DNA of 41,475 nt from a virus (Duplodnaviria; Caudoviricetes). The position numbers were made by a program, and so were the translations under genes. A model generated the notes under the pieces. That model worked only from the letters and a program-made list of their open reading frames with translations. It was not told the origin of the DNA and did no database searches. Location: IMG/VR virus record IMGVR_UViG_3300036904_000029, positions 1-41,475 of that record, one strand, 5' to 3'. This document shows, in pieces, positions 377 through 28,178 of the stretch (positions are counted from its first letter, which is position 1; the number at the start of each line of letters is the position of its first letter).

Positions 377-2401
377 ATGAAAAGACTTTTCGCGTTTCTA
401 AGCTTTGTGTTTCTTGTCGGCGCAACGATTCATGCCGCAAATCCGCCGAATTCGATTTACCTTCAATCAACGGGAACGGACGGGCATTTCCACGAAAACT
501 TTGTTTCAGGATCAACCGGGCAGATTCTAACTTTCAGCGGCAGCGGCACGCCAATCATTTCCAGTTCCAACACAAGCCTTCAACTTTACGGTGCGCTGAA
601 CAGCGGAACACTGTCAGGAATCACAACCGTAATCACCGGGTCAAGTTCCATCGCAGTTTCGTCAAGTGGCGGAAATCTTATCGTTGGATCGTTGCCCGTT
701 TTAACCGGCAGCGCGGTAACATCCATCCTTTCCGGCACAGGAATCGCCGTCACAACGACCGGAGGAACGAATACAATCAACAATTCTGGCGTGCTCGCGC
801 TCGAATCAGGAACCAATCCGATCACAACGGGAACCATTTTTATCGGCCCCAATCTTGTGCTTGTAAGTAATACGATTAGCGCAACAAGTTCAGTTGCAAA
901 CATCGTTTCCGGCACGGGAACTTCCGTCACTTCTACAAGCGGAACTTATACGATCAACAACGCGGGCGTGCTTGCATTGAAATCAGGAACCAATGCGATC
1001 ACAACGGGAACTATTTTCATCGGCAGCAACATGGCGCTTGTAAGCAATACGCTTAGCGCGACAAGCCCTGTTGCGAGCGTAGTTTCCGGCACTGGAACTG
1101 CCGTTACATCCACGGGCGGCACAAACACAATCAATAACACAGGCGCCCTCGCCGTCCTTGCCGGAACGAACACAACCGTAACAGTTGCCAGCGGCACCTA
1201 CACAATCAATGCAAGCGGCGGAGGCGGCGGCGTTTCTGGCATTTCAGTGACAAGCAGCAATGGCCAAACCGTCACCGTTTCTGGCACCAATTACAATGTT
1301 GGGCTTTCCACCGATAATGTTTCAGTCGGCAATCTCACGAGTAGCGGAACGATAAACGGAAACGCCGCAATTGTGAACACGGCGCAAGTGGGAAGCGCCA
1401 CTGTTCAAACGAGTCTGAATATGCTTTCCATTGCATTGGCAGACTTTCAAAGCGGGGCAAAAATTACCGGAACGCTGGCAGTTGCGACCAATGCGACCTA
1501 TGGGCGCTTTTTACTAAGCGGCACAGGAACTGCCGGAGCACTTGGACTGGCAATTAATGCTGCTGAGTTGGCGATTAATGGAACGAATGTCAGCACAGTT
1601 GCCGGGTCTGCGATTGCGAGCGGAACAGGCATTGCAACGACGCTCAGCGGCACGACGACGACGATCAACAATACCGGCGCACTTAGCGTCCTATCCGGCA
1701 CGGGCACTCATGTTACAACCGTCAACGGCACGAACACCATCAACAACACAGGCGCGCTTGCAATTGTTCAGGGAACGAACACAACCGTAACAGTTGCCAG
1801 CGGCACCTACACAATCAATGCAAGTGGAGGAGGAGGAGGAGGCGGAAGCATCAGCATCACATCGAGCAACGGCCTCACGGTGACGCTGAGCGCCACGAAC
1901 TACAATGTCGGAAAAATCACCGACAGCGGCACGATGGCGGCGATCAACGCGACGGGCACAATCTACATCGCGGCAAACAATATCAGTCTCGGTAATCAGA
2001 CGGGGACGAACGGATACGTAGATTCGGCAGGTAACATGTATCTGAGTGGCACGCTTCAAGTTGGCGCGGCGGGTTATGGTGCCATTCACATTGGCAATCC
2101 TCATGATGTTGGCGAGCCTTATATGTCACTTGGTGATCAGACTGGCGGAAATTGGTGGATTGACGGCATGGGAAACGCATATCTCGATGCAGGCGGTAAC
2201 CACACGACTCAGACTTTTTACAACGCGACCGTAAGGGGAACCTTAACGGCCAGCACTGCTGCTGCCGCTTTGTTTGGCAACATCCTCGCCGGAGCATCCA
2301 TCAGTCCCGTCGCAGACGGAACCTATGCCATCAGCAGTTCGCTGGGCGGCTCGATCACTTTCCAGTCTGGAATCGTCACAAGCTACACGCCCATGCCCTG
2401 A
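377..2401 (+). CDS. Gly/Thr/Ser-rich repetitive tail fibre/adhesin-like protein with N-terminal signal peptide
   Basis: Likely start MKRLFAFLSFVFLVGATIHA at 377; many SGTGxxVTxxxGTxTINNxG repeats; located at the end of the tail module. Confidence 0.7.
   Translation: MKRLFAFLSFVFLVGATIHAANPPNSIYLQSTGTDGHFHENFVSGSTGQILTFSGSGTPIISSSNTSLQLYGALNSGTLSGITTVITGSSSIAVSSSGGNLIVGSLPVLTGSAVTSILSGTGIAVTTTGGTNTINNSGVLALESGTNPITTGTIFIGPNLVLVSNTISATSSVANIVSGTGTSVTSTSGTYTINNAGVLALKSGTNAITTGTIFIGSNMALVSNTLSATSPVASVVSGTGTAVTSTGGTNTINNTGALAVLAGTNTTVTVASGTYTINASGGGGGVSGISVTSSNGQTVTVSGTNYNVGLSTDNVSVGNLTSSGTINGNAAIVNTAQVGSATVQTSLNMLSIALADFQSGAKITGTLAVATNATYGRFLLSGTGTAGALGLAINAAELAINGTNVSTVAGSAIASGTGIATTLSGTTTTINNTGALSVLSGTGTHVTTVNGTNTINNTGALAIVQGTNTTVTVASGTYTINASGGGGGGGSISITSSNGLTVTLSATNYNVGKITDSGTMAAINATGTIYIAANNISLGNQTGTNGYVDSAGNMYLSGTLQVGAAGYGAIHIGNPHDVGEPYMSLGDQTGGNWWIDGMGNAYLDAGGNHTTQTFYNATVRGTLTASTAAAALFGNILAGASISPVADGTYAISSSLGGSITFQSGIVTSYTPMP
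1163..1824 (+). repeat. 53-bp exact intragenic duplication (1163-1215 and 1772-1824); a diverged 177-bp-period duplication also lies at about 780-1140
   Basis: ggaacgaacacaaccgtaacagttgccagcggcacctacacaatcaatgcaag occurs twice. Confidence 0.85.
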
Positions 2402-2404
2402 TTT

Positions 2405-2728
2405 ATGAAAACAAAACGCATCACAGCAATCATCCTCACAGCAGCCGCGCTCGCCACTGCAGGCCTGCTTCGCGCGCAGTCGCCAGCGCCGACTCCCGCG
2501 CCGCTTCCGACACCGCGCATGGTGCCCGAGCGCACGAGCTTCACCTTCACGCCCGCCGAGACGCAGGCGCTGCTCGCGTCGCTGGCCGCGCAGTTGAGCG
2601 CGCTCGGCCATCCCGTGCCGAACGTCCCAGGCGTCATGGTGCAGAACGGCAATTTCCGCATCGAAACCAGCGGCAGCAACGCCGGTAAATCCTATCTCAC
2701 GCTAGGCTATGTGCTGAGCGGCACCTGA
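2405..2728 (+). CDS. Small exported protein, possible fibre chaperone
   Basis: Signal peptide MKTKRITAIILTAAALATAGLLRA, Pro-rich linker; directly follows the fibre gene. Confidence 0.55.
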   Translation: MKTKRITAIILTAAALATAGLLRAQSPAPTPAPLPTPRMVPERTSFTFTPAETQALLASLAAQLSALGHPVPNVPGVMVQNGNFRIETSGSNAGKSYLTLGYVLSGT

Positions 2729-2764
2729 TTTCGAACCGCAACCTGAAATAAAACTCACCATACC

Positions 2765-3091
2765 ATGTCCAACGAAGCTGAACCGCAGCAAAGGAAATTC
2801 GTTTCATGGCTGAATACCGTGCTGCTTGGAATAATCATCGCGGGCGGCGGAGTATTTTGCGAATGGAGCGGCACGCGATCCGTTGACCAAGGCGAAAGAT
2901 TGTCAGCCATTCAAGCAAGCCAAGTCACGCGGGCAGAGTTGGAGACAAAAATAAGCACGTCCCAAAACGAATTTAACTTGCGGCTTACAGCGATCCAAAA
3001 CGACCAAATCCAGCTTCGCGCGAAACTGACAGAAATGGAAATCAAGCAGGCGGCGGTCGCCGCCGCATTAGTAAAGAAAGAAAACCAATGA
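2765..3091 (+). CDS. Single-TM coiled-coil membrane protein (lysis module)
   Basis: One hydrophobic segment followed by a heptad-like region. Confidence 0.55.
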   Translation: MSNEAEPQQRKFVSWLNTVLLGIIIAGGGVFCEWSGTRSVDQGERLSAIQASQVTRAELETKISTSQNEFNLRLTAIQNDQIQLRAKLTEMEIKQAAVAAALVKKENQ

Positions 3092-3489
3092 ATCCACCAG
3101 CAACAATCAGTGACAGAATCATTCAGCTTTTAATCATGCGGTTTAGCGCCGCATTAACTACAACTCTTTCCGCGCTTGTGGCGATTGCAGTTACAAAACT
3201 TTCAACGCTGATTCCCGGCGTTGCGGAAAACATCAATCAAGTGGAAGTTGTGACGTTCTTAACGGTTGTCATTATGACGCTGATTCACGGATTTCTCGTC
3301 AACGTGCTAACCAAGCACACGAAACCGATCCAAGCCGCACTAAGGAAGCTCGGCTACAACGTGGACGTGGACGGCTGGATAGGAACCGCGTCAAGCGGTC
3401 TTATTGCGCAAAAAGCGCAGTTGACGTTGCCGCCGCCCAGTTCTACGCTCTCTCCCACGGTGGCAACAATGCCGCCAATCAGCAAATAA
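3088..3489 (+). CDS. Holin-like membrane protein with peptidoglycan-binding-like motif
   Basis: Two hydrophobic helices, then IQAALRKLGYNVDVDGWIG. Confidence 0.55.
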   Translation: MNPPATISDRIIQLLIMRFSAALTTTLSALVAIAVTKLSTLIPGVAENINQVEVVTFLTVVIMTLIHGFLVNVLTKHTKPIQAALRKLGYNVDVDGWIGTASSGLIAQKAQLTLPPPSSTLSPTVATMPPISK

Positions 3490-3503
3490 AACCAAACCAA
3501 ACA

Positions 3504-4019
3504 ATGAAAATGAAAACAGCACACAAAGCATTATCACTAATCACCGCCGCAACTCTTTTTTTCGCAATGTCGTCATGCGAAAGCGTCAAAAGTTTCTTCG
3601 CTTCGCCACAGGCGCAAACCGATGAAACCGCCGCGATCAACGTAATCAAGACAACCGCAATCGACGCGATCACGGGCGCGATCACGGGCGCGCTTGGCGG
3701 CGTTCCGGGCATTGAAGCCGGGGCAATCACAGGGGCCGGGCAGGGGCTTGTTGCCAGCGTTCCGCAAGCGATCTATGCAATCGAATCTGGCGCAACTTCG
3801 CCAACGTCAAAAGCGGTTGAAAGCGCAATCGCGAGCATTGCGGGTAGTCCCGTTGTCGCGGCATCCGTCGCGCCGACAATAGCCGGGCAGATTGCCAAGG
3901 CTACAAGCAACGGCATTCCGGCAACCACAGCCGCGAACATCATCAACGCGGCGCTGTACGCCATTGCGGCGCAACCGGCGGCATCAAAAAACAACACGGT
4001 AGCGCCGCCCGCACAGTAA
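3504..4019 (+). CDS. Lipoprotein (spanin-like candidate)
   Basis: Basic N-terminus, h-region, lipobox-like AMSSC; adjacent to the endolysin. Confidence 0.6.
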   Translation: MKMKTAHKALSLITAATLFFAMSSCESVKSFFASPQAQTDETAAINVIKTTAIDAITGAITGALGGVPGIEAGAITGAGQGLVASVPQAIYAIESGATSPTSKAVESAIASIAGSPVVAASVAPTIAGQIAKATSNGIPATTAANIINAALYAIAAQPAASKNNTVAPPAQ

Positions 4020-4031
4020 CCGGAACGATCT

Positions 4032-4607
4032 GTGATTTTCTCTGCCACAAAAAGCCCGGTATTCAACCGGGGCGTTCCGCCGGATGAATTTCTGGCGGAA
4101 CTTGTGGCATGGGGAAAAACCGCCAGTGAAAGCATTTTCACGTTCAACACGGAACCGCATGACGTTTTTGGGAGCACGTATCCGGCGTTAGGCCCGTGGC
4201 CCGGCGATGAAGGCACGCCGGAATGGTTGAATGCGCGTTGCGCGGCAATGCTTGAAATCATGCGCGTGCTTGCCGGGTTTGAATCGTCTTGGGACTGGAA
4301 TTGCGGAGTGGACACAAGCAACCCTGAAAGTGACACGCCGGAATCAGAGGAAGCGGGCGCATGGCAAGTCAGTTACGACAGCCATGTTATCGGGCAGGAT
4401 TTAAGAGACTTGCTTGCGGCGCACAATATCAATGACGGCATCGCGTTTCAAAAGGCAATGAAAGAGGATCACGCCTTGGCTATGGAATATGCCGCCCGGC
4501 TGTTCCGGCATACAACGCATGAAAACGGCCCGCTTGTGCGGCATGAAGTCAATCCGTGGCTCGACAAGGATTCCGCAGCCGAATTCTTGAAACTCATGGC
4601 GGCGTGA
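4032..4607 (+). CDS. Putative endolysin, lysozyme/lytic transglycosylase-like fold
   Basis: LAGFESS (catalytic Glu-Ser-like) and GAWQ motifs; lysis context. Confidence 0.6.
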   Translation: MIFSATKSPVFNRGVPPDEFLAELVAWGKTASESIFTFNTEPHDVFGSTYPALGPWPGDEGTPEWLNARCAAMLEIMRVLAGFESSWDWNCGVDTSNPESDTPESEEAGAWQVSYDSHVIGQDLRDLLAAHNINDGIAFQKAMKEDHALAMEYAARLFRHTTHENGPLVRHEVNPWLDKDSAAEFLKLMAA

Positions 4608-5522: not shown

Positions 5523-6326
5523 ATGAACGCCAACGAACAGCCGATAGTATTGAAAGAGTTTTCCGGGAAGCCGGAAATAACAGCAAACGCATTTCAGCTA
5601 AAGGAAACCGCCCTTGCGCTTGCCAAAAATATAACCGCCGTGACAAGCGACCAAGACTTGCAAACGGCAACCGTGGCGTTCCGGGCGCTCGCGGACTTGC
5701 GGCGGAACATGGACAAAAGCCGGAAAGCGGTAGCCGCGCCGGTTGACGATCTGAAAAAGGAAATCAACCGGCAAGCCGGGGACTTCATCGCGGAACCGGA
5801 AAAAGAGGAAGCTCGGATTGAAGGGCTGATAAACCATTACCAACGGCAGAAATTGCAGCAACAGCGGGACGCGGAAGCCGCAAGGGATCGTGAATTGCAG
5901 GCGGCGCAAACACAGCTTACGGGCGCGCAGACAAAGGAAAATCAGGCGGCGGCATTGCGCGAGAAAGCCAAGACCGCAAAACCGGCCGAAGCTGCCCGGC
6001 TTATCAAGCAGGCGGAAGCCTTGGAATCGGAAGCCTTGGACATGGCGCTCAACGTGGAATCGGCGGCGCTGACAGTCACGGGGCCGGTTGCAGGATTCAA
6101 GCCAAAAGGGTTGAGCGTGAAAGTTCAATTCGACTACCAAGTGTTGAAATCATACGAATTCATTTCATCACACCCGGAATTTTGGACATGGAATGAAAAG
6201 GATGAAACTTACAAAATCAAGCGCCGGGAGTTGTTGGAAGAAATCAACAAAGAGGGCGGCATGTTCGCAGTCAACGCGCCGCGCGGGTTGAACATCTTTG
6301 AATCGGTGAAATCAAACGTGAGATAA
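5523..6326 (+). CDS. Coiled-coil recombination-module protein (Gam/Gp157-like candidate)
   Basis: Long helical Ala/Glu/Lys-rich protein upstream of the annealase; family uncertain. Confidence 0.5.
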   Translation: MNANEQPIVLKEFSGKPEITANAFQLKETALALAKNITAVTSDQDLQTATVAFRALADLRRNMDKSRKAVAAPVDDLKKEINRQAGDFIAEPEKEEARIEGLINHYQRQKLQQQRDAEAARDRELQAAQTQLTGAQTKENQAAALREKAKTAKPAEAARLIKQAEALESEALDMALNVESAALTVTGPVAGFKPKGLSVKVQFDYQVLKSYEFISSHPEFWTWNEKDETYKIKRRELLEEINKEGGMFAVNAPRGLNIFESVKSNVR

Positions 6327-8409: not shown

Positions 8410-8663
8410 TGTTGCACGTCGCAAAACATTCCAAGGGCTACACGGAACTAACCAAGCGTTCCAAAAAGCACACCTTCACGCCGGTAAAGGTGGATCCCAA
8501 AACCGGCGAAGAAACGGCACAGCGTCCCGTAACCGTGGAATTGAAAACGGTTGCGTTGACGCAACCGGAAACCGTCCCGGCAAAAGGATTCACCGCAAAG
8601 CAGCAGCGGATGATTGACCTTGGCCGAAAAAGACTGACAACAAGCAACCCAGCCCGCAAATGA
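8409..8663 (+). CDS. Hypothetical basic protein
   Basis: Translationally coupled on both sides. Confidence 0.55.
   Translation: MLHVAKHSKGYTELTKRSKKHTFTPVKVDPKTGEETAQRPVTVELKTVALTQPETVPAKGFTAKQQRMIDLGRKRLTTSNPARK
8550..8565. repeat. 16-bp palindromic motif, copy 2 (GTTGCGTTGACGCAAC)
   Basis: Read directly. Confidence 0.9.
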
Positions 8664-9356: not shown

Positions 9357-9881
9357 ATGGCCCGCAAAACATCCCCAACGCAACGGACATTGAAAGAACT
9401 TCGCGACCAAGGCTGCGTTGCCGAAGTTGTGGAACGATGGATCACGATTCCGGGGCATCCCGGCGGCGGCAAGCGAAAGGACTTGTTTGACGTAATAGAC
9501 ATTATCGCCTGCCGCCCGTTACAGGGAAGCATCATCGAAGGTTTGGAATTTGAACTTCTGGCGGTGCAGGCAACAAGCGCCGTGAACCATACGACGCGGC
9601 TAAAGAAAGCGAAGGAAAGCGAAGGGTTGCGCGCATACCTTAAAACCGGCAACAAGTTTGAAGTGTGGAGTTGGGGAAAGAAAAAAATCAAAGGGCAGCG
9701 GCAGCTTTGGCATTGCCGGGCGGAAACGGTAACGCTCGCAGACTTGGACAAGGTTGAGCCGGTCAAGCCGGAACAAATCGACATTCCATTTTCAAGTGTT
9801 GCGAGCATCGAAAAGCCGAAACGGAAGCGCCGGGTAAAAACGCTGGTAATCACAGAAACCGCGCAACCAAGCCTGATATGA
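9357..9881 (+). CDS. PD-(D/E)xK-type nuclease, Holliday-junction-resolvase-like
   Basis: KDLFDVIDIIA...LAVQAT. Confidence 0.6.
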   Translation: MARKTSPTQRTLKELRDQGCVAEVVERWITIPGHPGGGKRKDLFDVIDIIACRPLQGSIIEGLEFELLAVQATSAVNHTTRLKKAKESEGLRAYLKTGNKFEVWSWGKKKIKGQRQLWHCRAETVTLADLDKVEPVKPEQIDIPFSSVASIEKPKRKRRVKTLVITETAQPSLI

Positions 9882-9991
9882 GCAAGGAATTTGTAATTGT
9901 TCTAAACAGCGGAGCGTTCCTGTACGAGAACGACGCGCTCTGCCGCCCCGCCGACAGCGAGGCTGGAGCGCACAAAGGACAATCGAAATGA
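9878..9991 (+). pseudogene. 37-aa ORF running into attC-like site A; possibly a gene truncated by cassette insertion
   Basis: ATGA-coupled to the upstream gene; MSKEFVIVLNSGAFLYEN then reads through the hairpin arm. Confidence 0.35.
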
Positions 9992-10046
9992 ATACGACTA
10001 TCGAACGGACAGCGGGGGCGGGGTTGGCAGCAGCAAATTGTTGTCC
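9925..10046 (-). mobile_element. attC-like recombination site A
   Basis: Minus strand: GGACAAC-aattt-GCTGCTGCC...GGCAGAGC-gcgtc-GTTCTCG; imperfect hairpin with an extra base in the L box; 122 bp. Confidence 0.7.
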
Positions 10047-10059
10047 GAATTACGAATTA

Positions 10060-10123
10060 GAGCCGAGCGTGGCATGGAAGCTGTGCCCGGCGCGGAGCCG
10101 AGCGTGGCATGGAAGCTGTGCCC
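10060..10123 (+). repeat. 29-bp direct repeat x2 (period 35)
   Basis: gagccgagcgtggcatggaagctgtgccc at 10060 and 10095; diverged third copy at about 10610-10637. Confidence 0.9.
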
Positions 10124-10148
10124 TCCGAAAGATTCTTGAAAAAAGATA

Positions 10149-10177
10149 TTGCATTTCAATCGAGGCGACGCGATACT
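10149..10177 (+). promoter_or_regulatory. Cassette-internal sigma70-like promoter
   Basis: TTGCAT-N17-GATACT just before ATG 10187. Confidence 0.5.
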
Positions 10178-10186
10178 CCTCCCGTT

Positions 10187-10402
10187 ATGAATACCAACAA
10201 CATCACCGACACACAGTTCATCATCGAAGACACCAAGGGCGGCTGGTTCCGCGCCAGCGACGAAATGCCGAACACGCACTGGACGCCCAACCGCGCCGAG
10301 GCGCAGACGTATCCGACGCGCGAGGCCGCGCAGGCGGAGATTGCCACGCTCGACCCAAGCGAACAGCGCACTGCCGCCGTCGTCGAATTGGCCAATGCGT
10401 AA
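10187..10402 (+). CDS. Small acidic hypothetical protein (cassette A)
   Basis: GC-rich coding pattern, downstream of promoter. Confidence 0.65.
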   Translation: MNTNNITDTQFIIEDTKGGWFRASDEMPNTHWTPNRAEAQTYPTREAAQAEIATLDPSEQRTAAVVELANA

Positions 10403-10574
10403 GCGGCGCAAGACTCACGGAGGTAAGCGCAGCGGTGCCGGTCGCAAGCCGACCGGCACCGAGCCGTGGCTGGTGCGCGTCAAACCTGAGACGCGCGAGG
10501 CAATCAAGGCCGATGCCGCACGCGCTGGATTCAAGACACCCGGCGCGCTACTCGACGCGCGCTACGGCGAGTAG
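10395..10574 (+). CDS. Small basic DNA-binding protein (GGKRxGAGRK hook plus RHH-like region; cassette A)
   Basis: HGGKRSGAGRKP...VRVKPETREAIKADA. Confidence 0.65.
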   Translation: MRKRRKTHGGKRSGAGRKPTGTEPWLVRVKPETREAIKADAARAGFKTPGALLDARYGE

Positions 10575-10646
10575 TTCCTTGGTCCGCTGGGCGGCGGGGG
10601 CTGGGCGGGGTGCCGTGGAACCGTGTGCCCGGAGCGGCGCTAATTC

Positions 10647-10755
10647 GGGGAACGCGGGAGCTGACGCACCCGCGACCGACGATAAATGAACTCTATGAAA
10701 CCTAAACGGAAAACTGAAAGCGCCAACGCGGGTTGCGTCCGGCGACTTGTTAGCA
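10647..10755 (-). mobile_element. attC-like recombination site B
   Basis: Minus strand: TGCTAAC-aagtc-GCCGGACGC-aacccgcg...cgcgggt-GCGTCAGC-tcccgc-GTTCCCC; 109 bp. Confidence 0.7.
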
Positions 10756-10991
10756 GGCGTCGAGAAAGACAAGCACTCGAAGCACTGGTAGCTCTCGCGC
10801 TCCGCAACGTGCAAGGAATAGTGACGGACGAGGAAATCGAAAACTACATGAGTCAGCCGGTGAAGCTCACGAAAGAGGATGAAGCCGCGCTAAAACGCGC
10901 CCGCCCGAAACTCCTAGCCGCGCTGCGTAGAGAACTGCGACCCGATGCGAAGCGACTCCAAAAGCGGTGGGGCAAGCCTGCTAACGAATAG
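10686..10991 (+). CDS. Hypothetical protein (cassette B)
   Basis: Starts in the loop of site B, stops in the arm of site C. Confidence 0.65.
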   Translation: MNSMKPKRKTESANAGCVRRLVSRRRERQALEALVALALRNVQGIVTDEEIENYMSQPVKLTKEDEAALKRARPKLLAALRRELRPDAKRLQKRWGKPANE

Positions 10992-11070
10992 CTCTGCCAT
11001 GCGCGACACGATGACGTCCGAATTGAAAACCGAGGCGACAACGCGCATTGGCAGCAGCGCATTGTTAGGT
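10979..11070 (-). mobile_element. attC-like recombination site C
   Basis: Minus strand: ACCTAAC-aatgc-GCTGCTGCC-aatgcgcg...cgcgcat-GGCAGAGC-tattc-GTTAGCA; 92 bp; R'' matches RYYYAAC. Confidence 0.8.
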
Positions 11071-11220
11071 GGCGGTCGTGGTCAATCCATCGTCGGAACA
11101 TCGCCGGGAATCTCAACTTGGCAGAAAAAGCTTGCATTGAAAATGAGCAAAGAAAAAGCAGAGCACGAACTAATGGAAATTATGCTGACATACAAACCCG
11201 CTAAAATTCAGCCCGCTTAA
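11011..11220 (+). CDS. Hypothetical protein starting in the loop of site C
   Basis: ATG in the hairpin loop; stop abuts the rep gene. Confidence 0.5.
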   Translation: MTSELKTEATTRIGSSALLGGGRGQSIVGTSPGISTWQKKLALKMSKEKAEHELMEIMLTYKPAKIQPA

Positions 11221-11221
11221 A

Positions 11222-12001
11222 ATGATTCATCGCATCACAAAACGGGACAACCCGTTCGCGCAAATCGACAAGCGGATGTTGGGCGATTACCGCCTTTCAT
11301 GGCGCGCAAAAGGGATACTGTCATACCTTTTAAGTAAGCCGGATAATTGGATCGTGCGAAGCGAGGAAATCCAATCACGGGCAACCGAAGGAAGGGATGC
11401 GATCCGGGCCGCAATGAAGGAACTTGCGAAGTTTGGATACGCCGAATTGGTGAACACAAAAGACGGGCGGGAATGGCTGATTCGCGAGCAGTCAACAAAG
11501 CCATGCCCTGAAAAGCCGTCTTTGCAGAATGACAACCCATGCCCTGAAAAGCCAACGCCTGAAAAGCCAACGCCTGAAAATCGCCCCCTAGTAATAAAGA
11601 GAAACACTAATAAGGATTTAAGTAATAAAGAGCCTTCTCTTTTTGATGATGAAGTTGCGTTGACGCAACCGGGAAAGAAAGCAATTCCATTCACAACACT
11701 CATTCCAGACTCTTTGTTTAGCGAATCATTCGTTTGCGCTTGGGACGATTTCACCGCGAACCGCAAGGAACTAAAAAAGCCGCTCACAACACGAAGCGCG
11801 AAAATGCTACTTCAAACCCTTGCACGGCGCCCGGCACAAGCGGCGGACGCGCTGGCGCTGGCAATCAAAAAAAACTGGCGCGGTTTTGAATGGGAATGGT
11901 TTGACGGAAACGGAACGAACGGCAGCGGATCGAAACCCGGCGCACAAATTCAAATGATGCCTTCCATCGAAGCGCAACGGGCGGCGCAAAAGAAAAAATG
12001 A
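11222..12001 (+). CDS. Phage replication initiator (N-terminal winged HTH)
   Basis: NPFAQID...LSWRAKGILSYLLSKPDNW...EGRDAIRAAMKEL...GY; internal PEKP repeats. Confidence 0.8.
   Translation: MIHRITKRDNPFAQIDKRMLGDYRLSWRAKGILSYLLSKPDNWIVRSEEIQSRATEGRDAIRAAMKELAKFGYAELVNTKDGREWLIREQSTKPCPEKPSLQNDNPCPEKPTPEKPTPENRPLVIKRNTNKDLSNKEPSLFDDEVALTQPGKKAIPFTTLIPDSLFSESFVCAWDDFTANRKELKKPLTTRSAKMLLQTLARRPAQAADALALAIKKNWRGFEWEWFDGNGTNGSGSKPGAQIQMMPSIEAQRAAQKKK
11501..11632 (+). repeat. Probable replication origin: iterons plus AT-rich tract inside the initiator gene
   Basis: CCTGAAAA(GCC) at 11507, 11543, 11558, 11573, followed by agtaataaaga-type AT-rich repeats; same layout as the lambda O-gene origin. 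Confidence 0.7.
11654..11669. repeat. 16-bp palindromic motif, copy 3
   Basis: GTTGCGTTGACGCAAC. Confidence 0.9.
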
Positions 12002-13660: not shown

Positions 13661-13986
13661 AGAAAGTTGCGTCAACGCAACCGCAAAATCCGCCAACGGA
13701 ACCGCCGCCGGCTGAAAAAGAAACCGCCGAAACCACGGAACCAAAGCCAGAATCACTTCCACCGTCATTGCTTGAATCGCGGACAATCGAAGCGATTACC
13801 GCGATCTTGAAAGGGGAATGGAAAAACCTTCAACCGTTAAAATCGGGAAGTTTCCAAAACTTCCGGTTGAGCGTGACACGGAAAGGAAACGGAATACACG
13901 TCGGGCTTTCATACGACAAGACAACGAATGCGTGGATGCAAACGGAAATCAACGATCCGGCAATGGAACTGAAGTTACAAGGATAA
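13522..13986 (+). CDS. Hypothetical protein with Lys/Pro/Glu-rich N-terminus
   Basis: ORF immediately upstream of the helicase. Confidence 0.6.
   Translation: MQTPIEANGESQSAKTTEPNIKPVATGKPEKKKIHAKKTAEKKPKVKKVASTQPQNPPTEPPPAEKETAETTEPKPESLPPSLLESRTIEAITAILKGEWKNLQPLKSGSFQNFRLSVTRKGNGIHVGLSYDKTTNAWMQTEINDPAMELKLQG
13666..13681. repeat. 16-bp palindromic motif, copy 4
   Basis: GTTGCGTCAACGCAAC. Confidence 0.9.
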
Positions 13987-25490: not shown

Positions 25491-28178
25491 ATGAAGGAAA
25501 AATACAAGCCATACGTTCCCACCAAGGCGGAAGCTCGGATTGACAAGGTTATCGGACTGTTCGCACCGATGCGCGCAGAACACCGTATGCAATCGCGGGA
25601 GCGGATGAATTACTTCCGCTACCTTGCCGCGCAATCCAACAACGTGCGGCAGAACGCGCATCCAAGCAGTTCCGGCGAAACGATCCGGGGAAGCCGGGAG
25701 AAAATGCAACTCATGTGGAACGCAATCGACATGATTGACAATTCCGGGCTTGGGGAAGGGATGCTGAAAAGGCTTGCGGATTACACCGCCGGGACGTTGC
25801 GATACCAAGCGCGAACCGGCGACAAGGCGGTTAATGAGGCATACGAAAGTTATTTGAAGGTGAAATTCGGAAAGGCAATCGACTACTCGAAGCGGTTTAC
25901 CTTGCGGCAAAAGGCGCAGCTTTCCGTGCGAAGCATTGCGCTAAAGGGCGATGTTGGACAGAACACCGTGCGCGAGGATTCGGAAATTTACTTCCAAGGC
26001 ATCGAAGCCAACCGAATCGGTGATCCCTACAATTACAACATTTCAAACCGATACATCCGGGGAATCCATATCGACGGAACCGGGACGCCGCAAGCATACG
26101 ACATCTACTCGCAGGATCGGAATTCCGCGTTCTACCGTTTTGAAATGCAAGTACCGGCGTTTGAAAAAACGGGACTGCCAAGGTTTCTTTTCGCGCACAA
26201 TCCAATCAGCTATGACGATTATCGCGGAGTGACGCTGTTCAAATCCGCAATCGACAACATCACGTTTTTGGATCAAATGCGGCAGTACGAATTGCAGGCA
26301 ATGCTTTGGGCATCTTCGCAGAGCGGCGTTTACAAGACCAAAAGCGGCACGCTGCCGGAAGGATTGCCGTTTGACGAAAACCAGCCGGAAGTGGACGCAT
26401 CCGGCAACAAGCTTCGCAGCTTCACCGTTCGCCCCAACACCGTGCAGGCAATCGGGGACGGGGAAGATGTTCACCTGTTCCCAAACGAACGGCCAAGCCC
26501 AAACGTGATTTCAATGTATCACGATTCCATCAAAGATTTTTGCGTTGGAACGGGATTCACTTTCTCTTTCGTGTACGACGCAACCGGGCTGAACGGCACG
26601 GCGATGCGCTACTGTTCATCGCAAGACAAGCGCGCAATCATCACTTGGGAATTAAACCTTTTGGAAAACATGCTTGATCCCATTGCGATGCTCACGCTTG
26701 GCAATGGCATTGCAAACGGAGAAATTCCCTATCATCCGAATTGGCGCAATGGTACGTTTATCTTTCCACCGTGGCCGACAGTGGACGCGGGCAGGGAGAG
26801 CGCCGCGAACATTAACGAAGTGAATGCCGGTATAAACAGCGGCACGCGGGTTGCAATCGAAAATTCCGATGATATAGGGGAAATTACGAAGGAACTTTCG
26901 CACGAAACGCAAAACCGAATTCAGGAAGCGAAGCGGATTGCGAAAGAGGAAGGGATTGACGATTGGCGGGAAGTGTTTGGATTTCTAAAACAGGGCGGCG
27001 GAGAAACCAAACTTTCCCCGCTCACTGAAAAATCCCGTGCGGATCAAACGCAACAAAACCCGCTGGCGGACGCGGACAAGAAAGGCGCAACAAGCGACGG
27101 CGCGGAGTTGGATGAAGATGAAGGCGGCGAAGAAACCGAATTCAAAATGAAAGGGCGCGACGGCGGAACGATCACGCTTCGCGGAAGGGTTGTGAAAAAA
27201 AACGGCAAAACTGTATTTGAACTGAGCGGGGTTGACGATGAATCCCGCGACGATCACGGGCGTTGGACGGAAGGAGGCGGAATATCTGGCGCAGCGTCGC
27301 ACTTGCAACCGACGCAAAAAGTTTTCACTGAGAGCGTGAACAAAAAAGGCGAGAAAGTAACATCGTCAAAATTCCTCACGCACGAAGGAAAGGAATTGCC
27401 GGAACATTTGTCCAAGATGAAAATTCCGCCCGCGTGGACGGATGTAAAAATCTCGCACGATCCGAACGCGAATTTGATGATACAGGGGAAAGATGCGAAG
27501 GGGCGCACGCAATCCGTCTATTCCGAAAATCACACAATGAAACAGGCTGCTGCAAAGTTCGCGCGCATCCGGGAGCTGAGCGAAAAGAAGGACAAAATTT
27601 TTAAGCAGAACGAAGATAATCTTTCACATTCCGATCCGAGCATTCGCGAAAACGCGGCGGCATCACGGCTGATTCATTCCACCGGAATCAGGCCGGGCAG
27701 CGACGCAGAAACCGGCGCGGAGAAAAAAGCATACGGCGCGACAACATTGGAGGGACGCCATGTGACGCAGGATGAAAATGGAAATGTGGTTTTGAAATTC
27801 ACCGGCAAAAAAGGCGTCGATCTTTCCATTCCGGTTGAGGACAAAAAAATTGCAGCCGATTTGCTGGAAAGAAAAAAAGCGGCTGGAGACGCCGGGAAGA
27901 TTTTCAAAACGGATCAGGCGAGCCTTGGCGATTACACGCACACTTTGGACGGCGGAGGATTCAAGACAAAAGATTTCCGAACACTCAAGGGAACAACGAC
28001 CGCGTTGGATGAGATTGAAAAAATGCCCGCTCCGAAAAGCGAAAAGGAATACAAAAAATACGTCAAGACCGTCGCGAGCGCCGTTGCAAAAAAACTCGGA
28101 AACACACCAGCGATTGCGCTGCAATCTTATATCTCGCCTCACGTCTTCGAGGATTGGAAAAACAAACTCGCCGCATAA
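25491..28178 (+). CDS. Lambda-family portal protein fused to a C-terminal type IB DNA topoisomerase domain
   Basis: Portal about aa 1-500 (YRGV, ERPS, TVDAGRE); TopIB about aa 630-895 with IPPAW, GKDAKGRTQ.VY, R734 (GIRPG), K773 (FTGK), R830 (KDFRT), N871 (GNT), Y880 (SYI). Confidence 0.9.
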   Translation: MKEKYKPYVPTKAEARIDKVIGLFAPMRAEHRMQSRERMNYFRYLAAQSNNVRQNAHPSSSGETIRGSREKMQLMWNAIDMIDNSGLGEGMLKRLADYTAGTLRYQARTGDKAVNEAYESYLKVKFGKAIDYSKRFTLRQKAQLSVRSIALKGDVGQNTVREDSEIYFQGIEANRIGDPYNYNISNRYIRGIHIDGTGTPQAYDIYSQDRNSAFYRFEMQVPAFEKTGLPRFLFAHNPISYDDYRGVTLFKSAIDNITFLDQMRQYELQAMLWASSQSGVYKTKSGTLPEGLPFDENQPEVDASGNKLRSFTVRPNTVQAIGDGEDVHLFPNERPSPNVISMYHDSIKDFCVGTGFTFSFVYDATGLNGTAMRYCSSQDKRAIITWELNLLENMLDPIAMLTLGNGIANGEIPYHPNWRNGTFIFPPWPTVDAGRESAANINEVNAGINSGTRVAIENSDDIGEITKELSHETQNRIQEAKRIAKEEGIDDWREVFGFLKQGGGETKLSPLTEKSRADQTQQNPLADADKKGATSDGAELDEDEGGEETEFKMKGRDGGTITLRGRVVKKNGKTVFELSGVDDESRDDHGRWTEGGGISGAASHLQPTQKVFTESVNKKGEKVTSSKFLTHEGKELPEHLSKMKIPPAWTDVKISHDPNANLMIQGKDAKGRTQSVYSENHTMKQAAAKFARIRELSEKKDKIFKQNEDNLSHSDPSIRENAAASRLIHSTGIRPGSDAETGAEKKAYGATTLEGRHVTQDENGNVVLKFTGKKGVDLSIPVEDKKIAADLLERKKAAGDAGKIFKTDQASLGDYTHTLDGGGFKTKDFRTLKGTTTALDEIEKMPAPKSEKEYKKYVKTVASAVAKKLGNTPAIALQSYISPHVFEDWKNKLAA

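Follow-up and report, generated by a model that had tools for sequence, protein, structure and literature searches.

The integron is regarded as a bacterial device, and the strand selectivity of its attC recombination as a means of placing genes in sense behind Pc. In complete integrons (Cury et al., 2016, PMC4889954; Nivina et al., 2016, PMC5027507), attC sites of 57–141 bp are described with R and L boxes, two extrahelical bases and a footprint that runs across cassettes, and the locus reported here shares all of these. Related phages also share the orientation of intI, which diverges from the attC top strand, and the attI-like site in between. The differences are that this genome has no intI, attI or Pc, that cassette genes point towards intI instead of away from it and have their start codons in the attC loop, and that the attI of related phages lies only 30–157 nt before intI. 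The inverted-integrase integrons of Treponema and others (PMC4889954; PMC13323075) resemble the phage family in having cassette genes and intI co-directional, but in them intI is flipped relative to attC, whereas the phage family keeps the ordinary intI–attC geometry and flips the genes. Cassette insertion at genomic attG sites and SALINs (Loot et al., bioRxiv 10.1101/2022.09.11.507474) offer a route by which an IntI in trans could place cassettes without attI; these are single cassettes in bacterial chromosomes, whereas here a multi-cassette array lies in a phage and its second junction is not identifiable.

Published systems also include phage CALINs whose attC sites work, 5 of the 6 phage sites tested having recombined with IntI1 (Qi et al., 2023, PMC9892861). 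The array described here is like them in having at least two attC sites in a phage genome without intI, and its family shares methyltransferase cargo with them. It differs from the TJE1 and PH101 arrays, called typical in direction in that article, in that its genes are antisense to attC. By the polarity rule of our analysis, which we tested on known canonical arrays, TJE1 is canonical (3/3 sites on the gene strand); in another canonical array (L115), all eight cassettes have the longer ORF on the top strand, three of them with Pfam matches. A further published phage CALIN, MW202573, has three attC model matches on the minus strand and its annotated genes on the plus strand (2069–3738), and judged from these matches is probably reversed too; the main text of PMC9892861 does not mention this. 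Phage CALINs are already known, and what appears to be new is the reversed gene polarity: a reversed class of phage integrons has no description in the literature searched, outside of which most subscription papers fall.

The window, that is, the whole 41,475-nt stretch analyzed, is a circular phage genome with a terminal direct repeat of 127 nt and three attC sites. Its 59 scanned ORFs include genes for a terminase, portal, major head protein, DnaB, ThyX and a replication initiator, and the same DNA is present in peat metagenomes. The backbone has no close relative in the collections searched (best match 53%, for a flanking protein) and no match among 50,697 GenBank phage records, so that an empty site, or gain or loss at the array locus, was not seen. 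The array sits between a 174-aa gene and the replication initiation gene (11222..12001, +; phrog_4707, E 1.6e-23), its right flank, in a region whose genes are on the + strand. Its left boundary is a 37-aa frame (9878..9991, +) that runs into the first site and stops on the ATG of that site's loop. As the initial annotation had claimed, the block is richer in GC than its surroundings (61.2% versus 51.6% elsewhere, the richest equal-length stretch elsewhere reaching 58.3%).

The three hairpins of that annotation are all present with every motif it had quoted: site A at 9925..10046 (122 bp), site B at 10647..10755 (109 bp) and site C at 10979..11070 (92 bp), each inside the attC range of 57–141 bp and with the minus strand as its top strand. 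All have R boxes with AAC (at 9929, 10651 and 10983) and GTT (at 10040, 10749 and 11064), L boxes, and spacers of 5–6 nt. On the + strand, each site pairs over 3 bp, an extra C, 6 bp, an extra T and then a further 6–7 bp. The extrahelical bases are C 10031 and T 10024 in site A, C 10740 and T 10733 in site B, which has one T–G wobble in its L box, and C 11055 and T 11048 in site C. In every case they are 6 bp apart, on the arm opposite AAC, with a T as the last, and this is how the recombinogenic bottom strand is described (PMC5027507); the first is a C where G is usual. ATGs occur in the loop of site A at 9988, in that of site B at 10686 and 10695, and in site C at 10999 and 11011.

To compare the genome with shuffled strands, we scanned both for the rule AAC-5-bulged L box...L box-5/6-GTT. 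The genome contained 12 sites scoring at least 7/8 (shuffle mean 3.7 per strand), and its only perfect 8/8 sites were A and C (shuffle mean 0.19 per strand), which share their L boxes and have B between them; one of 80 shuffled strands had three rule sites inside 1.2 kb. The second extrahelical T and the 6–7 further pairs, found in all three sites, are not part of this rule. We also built a covariance model, R1, from 26 attC sites of canonical or chromosomal arrays that were found without the window's motif and include no window sequence. Sites C (43.2 bits), B (31.5 bits) and A (18.6 bits) were the top three of its 25 genome matches, all on the minus strand; the score of site A is below the 20-bit threshold of Qi et al., whose model differs from R1. 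The anatomy, the second bulge and this ranking agree with the R- and L-box architecture claimed earlier. The claim that the outer boxes pair across cassettes better than within hairpins also stands: sites B and C pair 7/7 over the R box and 9/9 when extended, and A and B 5/7 and 11/13, the latter within a 22-nt imperfect inverted repeat, versus 4–5/7 within each site. With at least two same-strand attC sites within 4 kb (PMC4889954) and no integron integrase nearby, the array is a CALIN by definition, and is neither a set of canonical cassettes nor a complete integron.

If these were terminators, REP-like repeats or hairpins that arose by chance, all unrelated to integrons, their unremarkable raw folding energy (z 0.07 to −2.4) and the frequency of loose rule matches in shuffled strands would be expected. 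The clustering of perfect sites, the second bulge and the cross-cassette pairing all speak against this, as do a terminator scan and an Rfam scan, which found no terminator-like site and no match in the array region. The model ranking, together with the exact recurrence of cassette B described below, refutes the idea, to which we give next to no weight; the array of attC sites is real. Folding of the sites as single-stranded DNA gave a divided result: the bottom strand is predicted to fold well in site A (pfold 0.41, top strand 0.011) and in site C (0.85), where the top strand is nearly as good (0.70), but poorly in site B (2e-6), where the attC fold is not the most stable structure. Little or no excision is reported in the pfold range of site B (PMC5371416). 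From this poor predicted fold, excision of a single cassette should be rare and excision from A to C more likely, and a fairly stable array is predicted.

Cassette B (10653..10984, +) consists of site B and a 224-bp gene body. Its 101-aa gene (10686..10991, +) has its start codon within the site B loop and its stop 6 nt into site C. The protein has 20 database matches (59–98% identity) and nothing in the ESM Atlas; the gene was found in metagenome contigs and not among the viral contigs searched. In the alignment, conservation extends from the codons over GTT to those over the next AAC, with variable sequence on either side, a pattern that would be expected if each cassette's own attC encodes the start and the attC after it encodes the tail. 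Four contigs among the metagenome matches listed for this gene bear on its mobility. L211 carries the cassette whole, matching the genome from AAC to AAC (10651–10985, 335 bp, 91.6%, no gaps) between other, unrelated neighbor cassettes. In L212 and L213 (92%) and L214 (74%), similarity to cassette B ends at 10986 and a different attC follows. Contigs of three other studies, from peat and permafrost, likewise break at AAC (10650, 10983, 10986 and 10987). L212 has ten same-strand sites with cross-pairing of 6–7/7 at 9/9 intervals; at 3971–4184 it also holds a 5′-truncated cassette B gene fused behind the gene of another cassette, its own attC lost.

These findings support exchange of cassette B, though not of A, as a unit bounded by the crossover points, and from its recurrence in these sequences we consider cassette B mobile. 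Together, the cross-cassette pairing and the exact recurrence of cassette B support the reading of the outer boxes as a recombination footprint. No excision joints appeared in four sequencing runs containing this phage (X1–X4, of which X1–X3 may be the source sample). Four other runs yielded no joints or excised forms except one 107-nt skip in an 80% relative, and contigs drop rare variants; small shares in runs X7–X11 are partly low-depth pieces of the same phage.

The attC sites might instead be relics, with units now moving between phages by homologous recombination over shared attC repeats. Consistent with this, attC types are common to unrelated contigs at 91–95%, peat assemblies contain high-depth repeats that match the right arm of site B, the genome has no integrase and site B folds poorly. 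Moreover, a single 929-bp unit lying between two identical sites distinguishes two viral contigs (L005 and L031), a difference that homologous recombination or a collapsed assembly would fit equally; since both sites are identical, we rejected it as evidence on breakpoints. However, similarity in L211 ends at AAC on both sides with a different attC directly after, so that there is no homology across the breakpoints, and pairing across cassettes exceeds that within sites. Intact intI genes and attI-like sites also adjoin arrays of this kind, and we consider the relic account unlikely.

Cassette A (9931..10652, +), whose boundaries follow from the attC rule, has predicted AA^C crossovers at 9930/9931 and 10652/10653 and comprises site A and about 600 bp of cargo, with ends that pair 11/13. 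It was not found as a unit elsewhere. Site A itself recurs from AAC to GTT exactly, at 76–95% identity, in other contigs that carry other cargo (91–95% in L023, L024 and L048). Near the start of the cargo is an exact 29-nt direct duplication (10060–10088 and 10095–10123), followed by a putative, weak promoter-like spacing, two hexamers 17 nt apart identified by eye and under the promoter-scan threshold (10149..10177, +), before a 71-aa gene (10187..10402, +). The latter has two full-length relatives (53% and 48% identity; a further search gave none) and no Pfam or PHROG match. A 59-aa gene (10395..10574, +) overlaps its stop. It has no Pfam match but, given feature matches of 0.92–0.93 in the ESM Atlas to viral RHH/CopG clusters, which are a lead only, likely encodes a ribbon-helix-helix (CopG-like) DNA-binding protein. 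A 233-aa open frame (9988..10689, +) opens at the site A ATG and closes with a TGA that overlaps the ATG of site B; it has no Pfam or PHROG match and is probably a shadow frame over these two genes.

Cassette genes with relatives lie on the + strand, the bottom strand of attC, as the initial annotation had proposed in calling the array inverted relative to its genes; the canonical arrangement, with the gene on the top strand and ending at its own attC, is not seen here. Three minus-strand frames of the array have no Pfam match. We also tried AT skew as a strand indicator and rejected it, since canonical arrays show the same sign. To the right of site C, a 69-aa open frame (11011..11220, +) starts within the site and ends 1 nt before the replication gene. 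It fills the position that attI and intI occupy in related phages (intI in G006, G010 and G011), and the far end of cassette C, the truncated third cassette, is not identifiable. The genome has no match to TIGR02249 or PF00589 at E ≤ 10 and no intI remnant by tblastn (best E 0.03), which confirms that the array is without an integrase. Within 330 nt right of site C, no AAC exceeds a 7/12 match to the cassette end, and none carries the attI-like motif of related phages described below. The promoter scan gave two weak sites, versus 0.8 expected, neither placed as Pc.

To investigate whether similar arrays occur elsewhere, we searched for the L-box pattern and found it in 32 viral stretches, many with arrays. 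An integrase search covering 25 of these loci identified an IntI-type gene in nine (211–354 bits), three of them above the curated TIGR02249 cut-off and six below it; one (L057) is frameshifted. This frameshift separates near-identical phages, intI being intact in L049/L012 and broken in L057/L025, and is possibly a step towards integrase-less arrays or an assembly error. The six phage integrases aligned carry the inserted segment specific to IntI. The scanned intI records encode terminase, capsid, portal, tape-measure, head, tail or helicase proteins, and two (G009 and G010) have terminal repeats. An alignment search then gave 164 viral stretches with integrases of this type, and we kept 80; 91 of the 101 perfect sites near these 80 loci are upstream of intI and on the opposite strand. 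An attI-like junction was present at 28 of 37 phage intI loci, as an AAC 30–157 nt before intI that matches the far R box of the first cassette 7/7 and is followed by a common attI-like motif. The motif is compact, has intI starting almost directly after it, and is shared by the phage integrases of L079, L090, L092–L095, L099, L103, L108 and others. Of 39 nearby genes downstream of intI, nine are replication genes and three encode a terminase. Second reversed arrays away from intI occur in L098/L109, L060 and L061.

We compared 92 distinct viral cassettes of the family from 42 loci, with L115 and L118 omitted as canonical. R boxes pair at 6/7 or better across the cassette in 76 of the 92 and within the site in 29. 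The bottom-strand ORF is the longer one in 73 of the 92, starts in its own attC in 50 of the 92 and stops in the next attC in 69 of the 92, and in 19 the top-strand ORF is not shorter; most cassette ORFs are without a family match and their strand call rests on length. PHROG matches were found for 25 of 99 bottom-strand ORFs versus 3 of 87 on the top strand, two of these three in L115 and one a shadow of a methyltransferase, and Pfam matched none of 79 top-strand viral ORFs. A bottom-strand ATG in the loop is present in 86 of 112 viral sites versus 12 of 34 canonical sites. DNA methyltransferases, PAPS-reductase-like proteins, HTH regulators, HNH and Lar are among the cargo. In an IntI tree from a quick search (87 rows from 115 matches after near-copies were removed), two virus-rich clades had 100% SH-aLRT, one with 14 viral members and the other with 11 viral members and six genome-bin contigs. 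The tree does not show a single origin of viral IntI: viral rows need nine changes, and the query was drawn from those clades. Five loci (L112, L119, L120, L133 and L150) have a second, ordinary phage integrase or a serine recombinase after the IntI gene, so that IntI is probably not the lysogeny enzyme in these phages.

The inversion would be merely apparent if the sites recombined on the other strand, since relative to their own enzyme the genes would then be oriented as usual. Both strands of site C fold, and one gene body found with different 5′ attC sites (L214) suggests occasional exchange at the other R box. Yet the 5′ hairpin is part of the mobile unit, which extends from one AAC to the next; at those 28 loci the far R box of the first cassette finds its 7/7 match in the attI-like junction, and intI diverges from the top strand as in ordinary integrons; we regard apparent inversion as very improbable. 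The same L-box type was found in ten bacterial genome contigs, seven of them from Verrucomicrobiota, which on this count is the likely host phylum, and IntI scored above the cut-off in 17 of 61 genomes sampled from the likely host class. Together with the GC-rich block, this could suggest chance capture of part of a host chromosomal integron, inverted and carried as inert cargo. However, a flipped host array would retain its genes on the attC top strand, whereas here those with relatives are on the bottom strand, and the family's cargo is of phage type. In addition, bacterial contigs with reversed cassettes (L040, L047, L048/L205 and L207) carry mostly phage-like genes, whereas those with canonical cassettes have chromosomal neighbors, the latter being a small control mostly without family matches. 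Capture from the host is largely refuted and, in our estimate, highly unlikely. Some attC sites of bacterial contigs hold a bottom-strand loop ATG (L042 at 5998–6098, L199 and L200), and the L042 site shares its type with one in the phage contig L005; host and phage attC pools may exchange.

Overall, we propose, with a probability of about 0.8, that the array is an integrase-less member of a family of reverse-polarity phage integrons, assembled by IntI from a shared phage cassette pool. Its three attC sites bound two complete small cassettes and a truncated third, with genes opposite the attC top strand, and IntI-type site-specific recombination from a pool common to phages likely put them together. 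By analogy with known integrons, the + strand would fold into the recombinogenic hairpin and be cut at AA^C by an IntI, and cassettes would enter and leave as hairpin-plus-gene units. The layout suggests that the hairpin sits at the 5′ end of the gene, its loop supplying the start codon and the next hairpin the stop, and that the rightward phage transcript towards the replication gene reads the cassettes, in which case an integron Pc is not needed. With no integrase or attI of its own, the array would change only when an IntI is supplied in trans by a co-infecting or resident phage or by the host. Because many phages that carry the same kind of array have an IntI gene of their own together with an attI-like site, often a short way upstream of replication genes, a phage-encoded enzyme (lost from an ancestor, or brought by a phage that co-infects or is resident) is no less likely than the host IntI that the initial annotation had proposed. 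Loss of attI–intI from an ancestral phage integron appears somewhat more likely than insertion at a secondary site.

More broadly, we lean slightly towards the view that phages run an integron system of their own, with phage-specific IntI clades, a compact attI and reversed cassettes that start in the attC loop, and that integrase-less phages share its pool. The same chemistry would then serve another expression logic, and part of phage mosaicism would have a site-specific mechanism. Bacterial integrons are reported to stock anti-phage cassettes, and a mirrored phage pool, with DNA methyltransferases and Lar-like anti-restriction genes among its cargo, would form the opposing side of an integron–phage arms race. 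If phages do run their own integrons, phage cassettes would, under reversed polarity, stay silent behind a host Pc, as would host defense cassettes in the phage transcript, and we hypothesize that this polarity insulates the two pools. The same attC with different cargo, and the same cargo with different attC, would then expose how cassettes are made; such reassortment bears on the open question of where integron cassettes come from. The attC-encoded, variable ends of small hypothetical phage proteins would be explained as well. The value of this small integrase-less array lies in the exact recurrence of cassette B and in its link to complete phage integrons with an attI-like site.

Outside the array, we observed three further features of the genome. 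In an 895-aa ORF (25491–28178, +), a lambda-type portal (PF05136) is fused with the core of a type IB topoisomerase (PF01028, E 6e-24). A near-palindromic, operator-like motif of 16–18 nt has three copies within genes (~8548–8565, 11654–11671 and 13666–13683). Finally, the replication initiator gene contains four 20-nt direct repeats (11498–11583) that are likely origin iterons.
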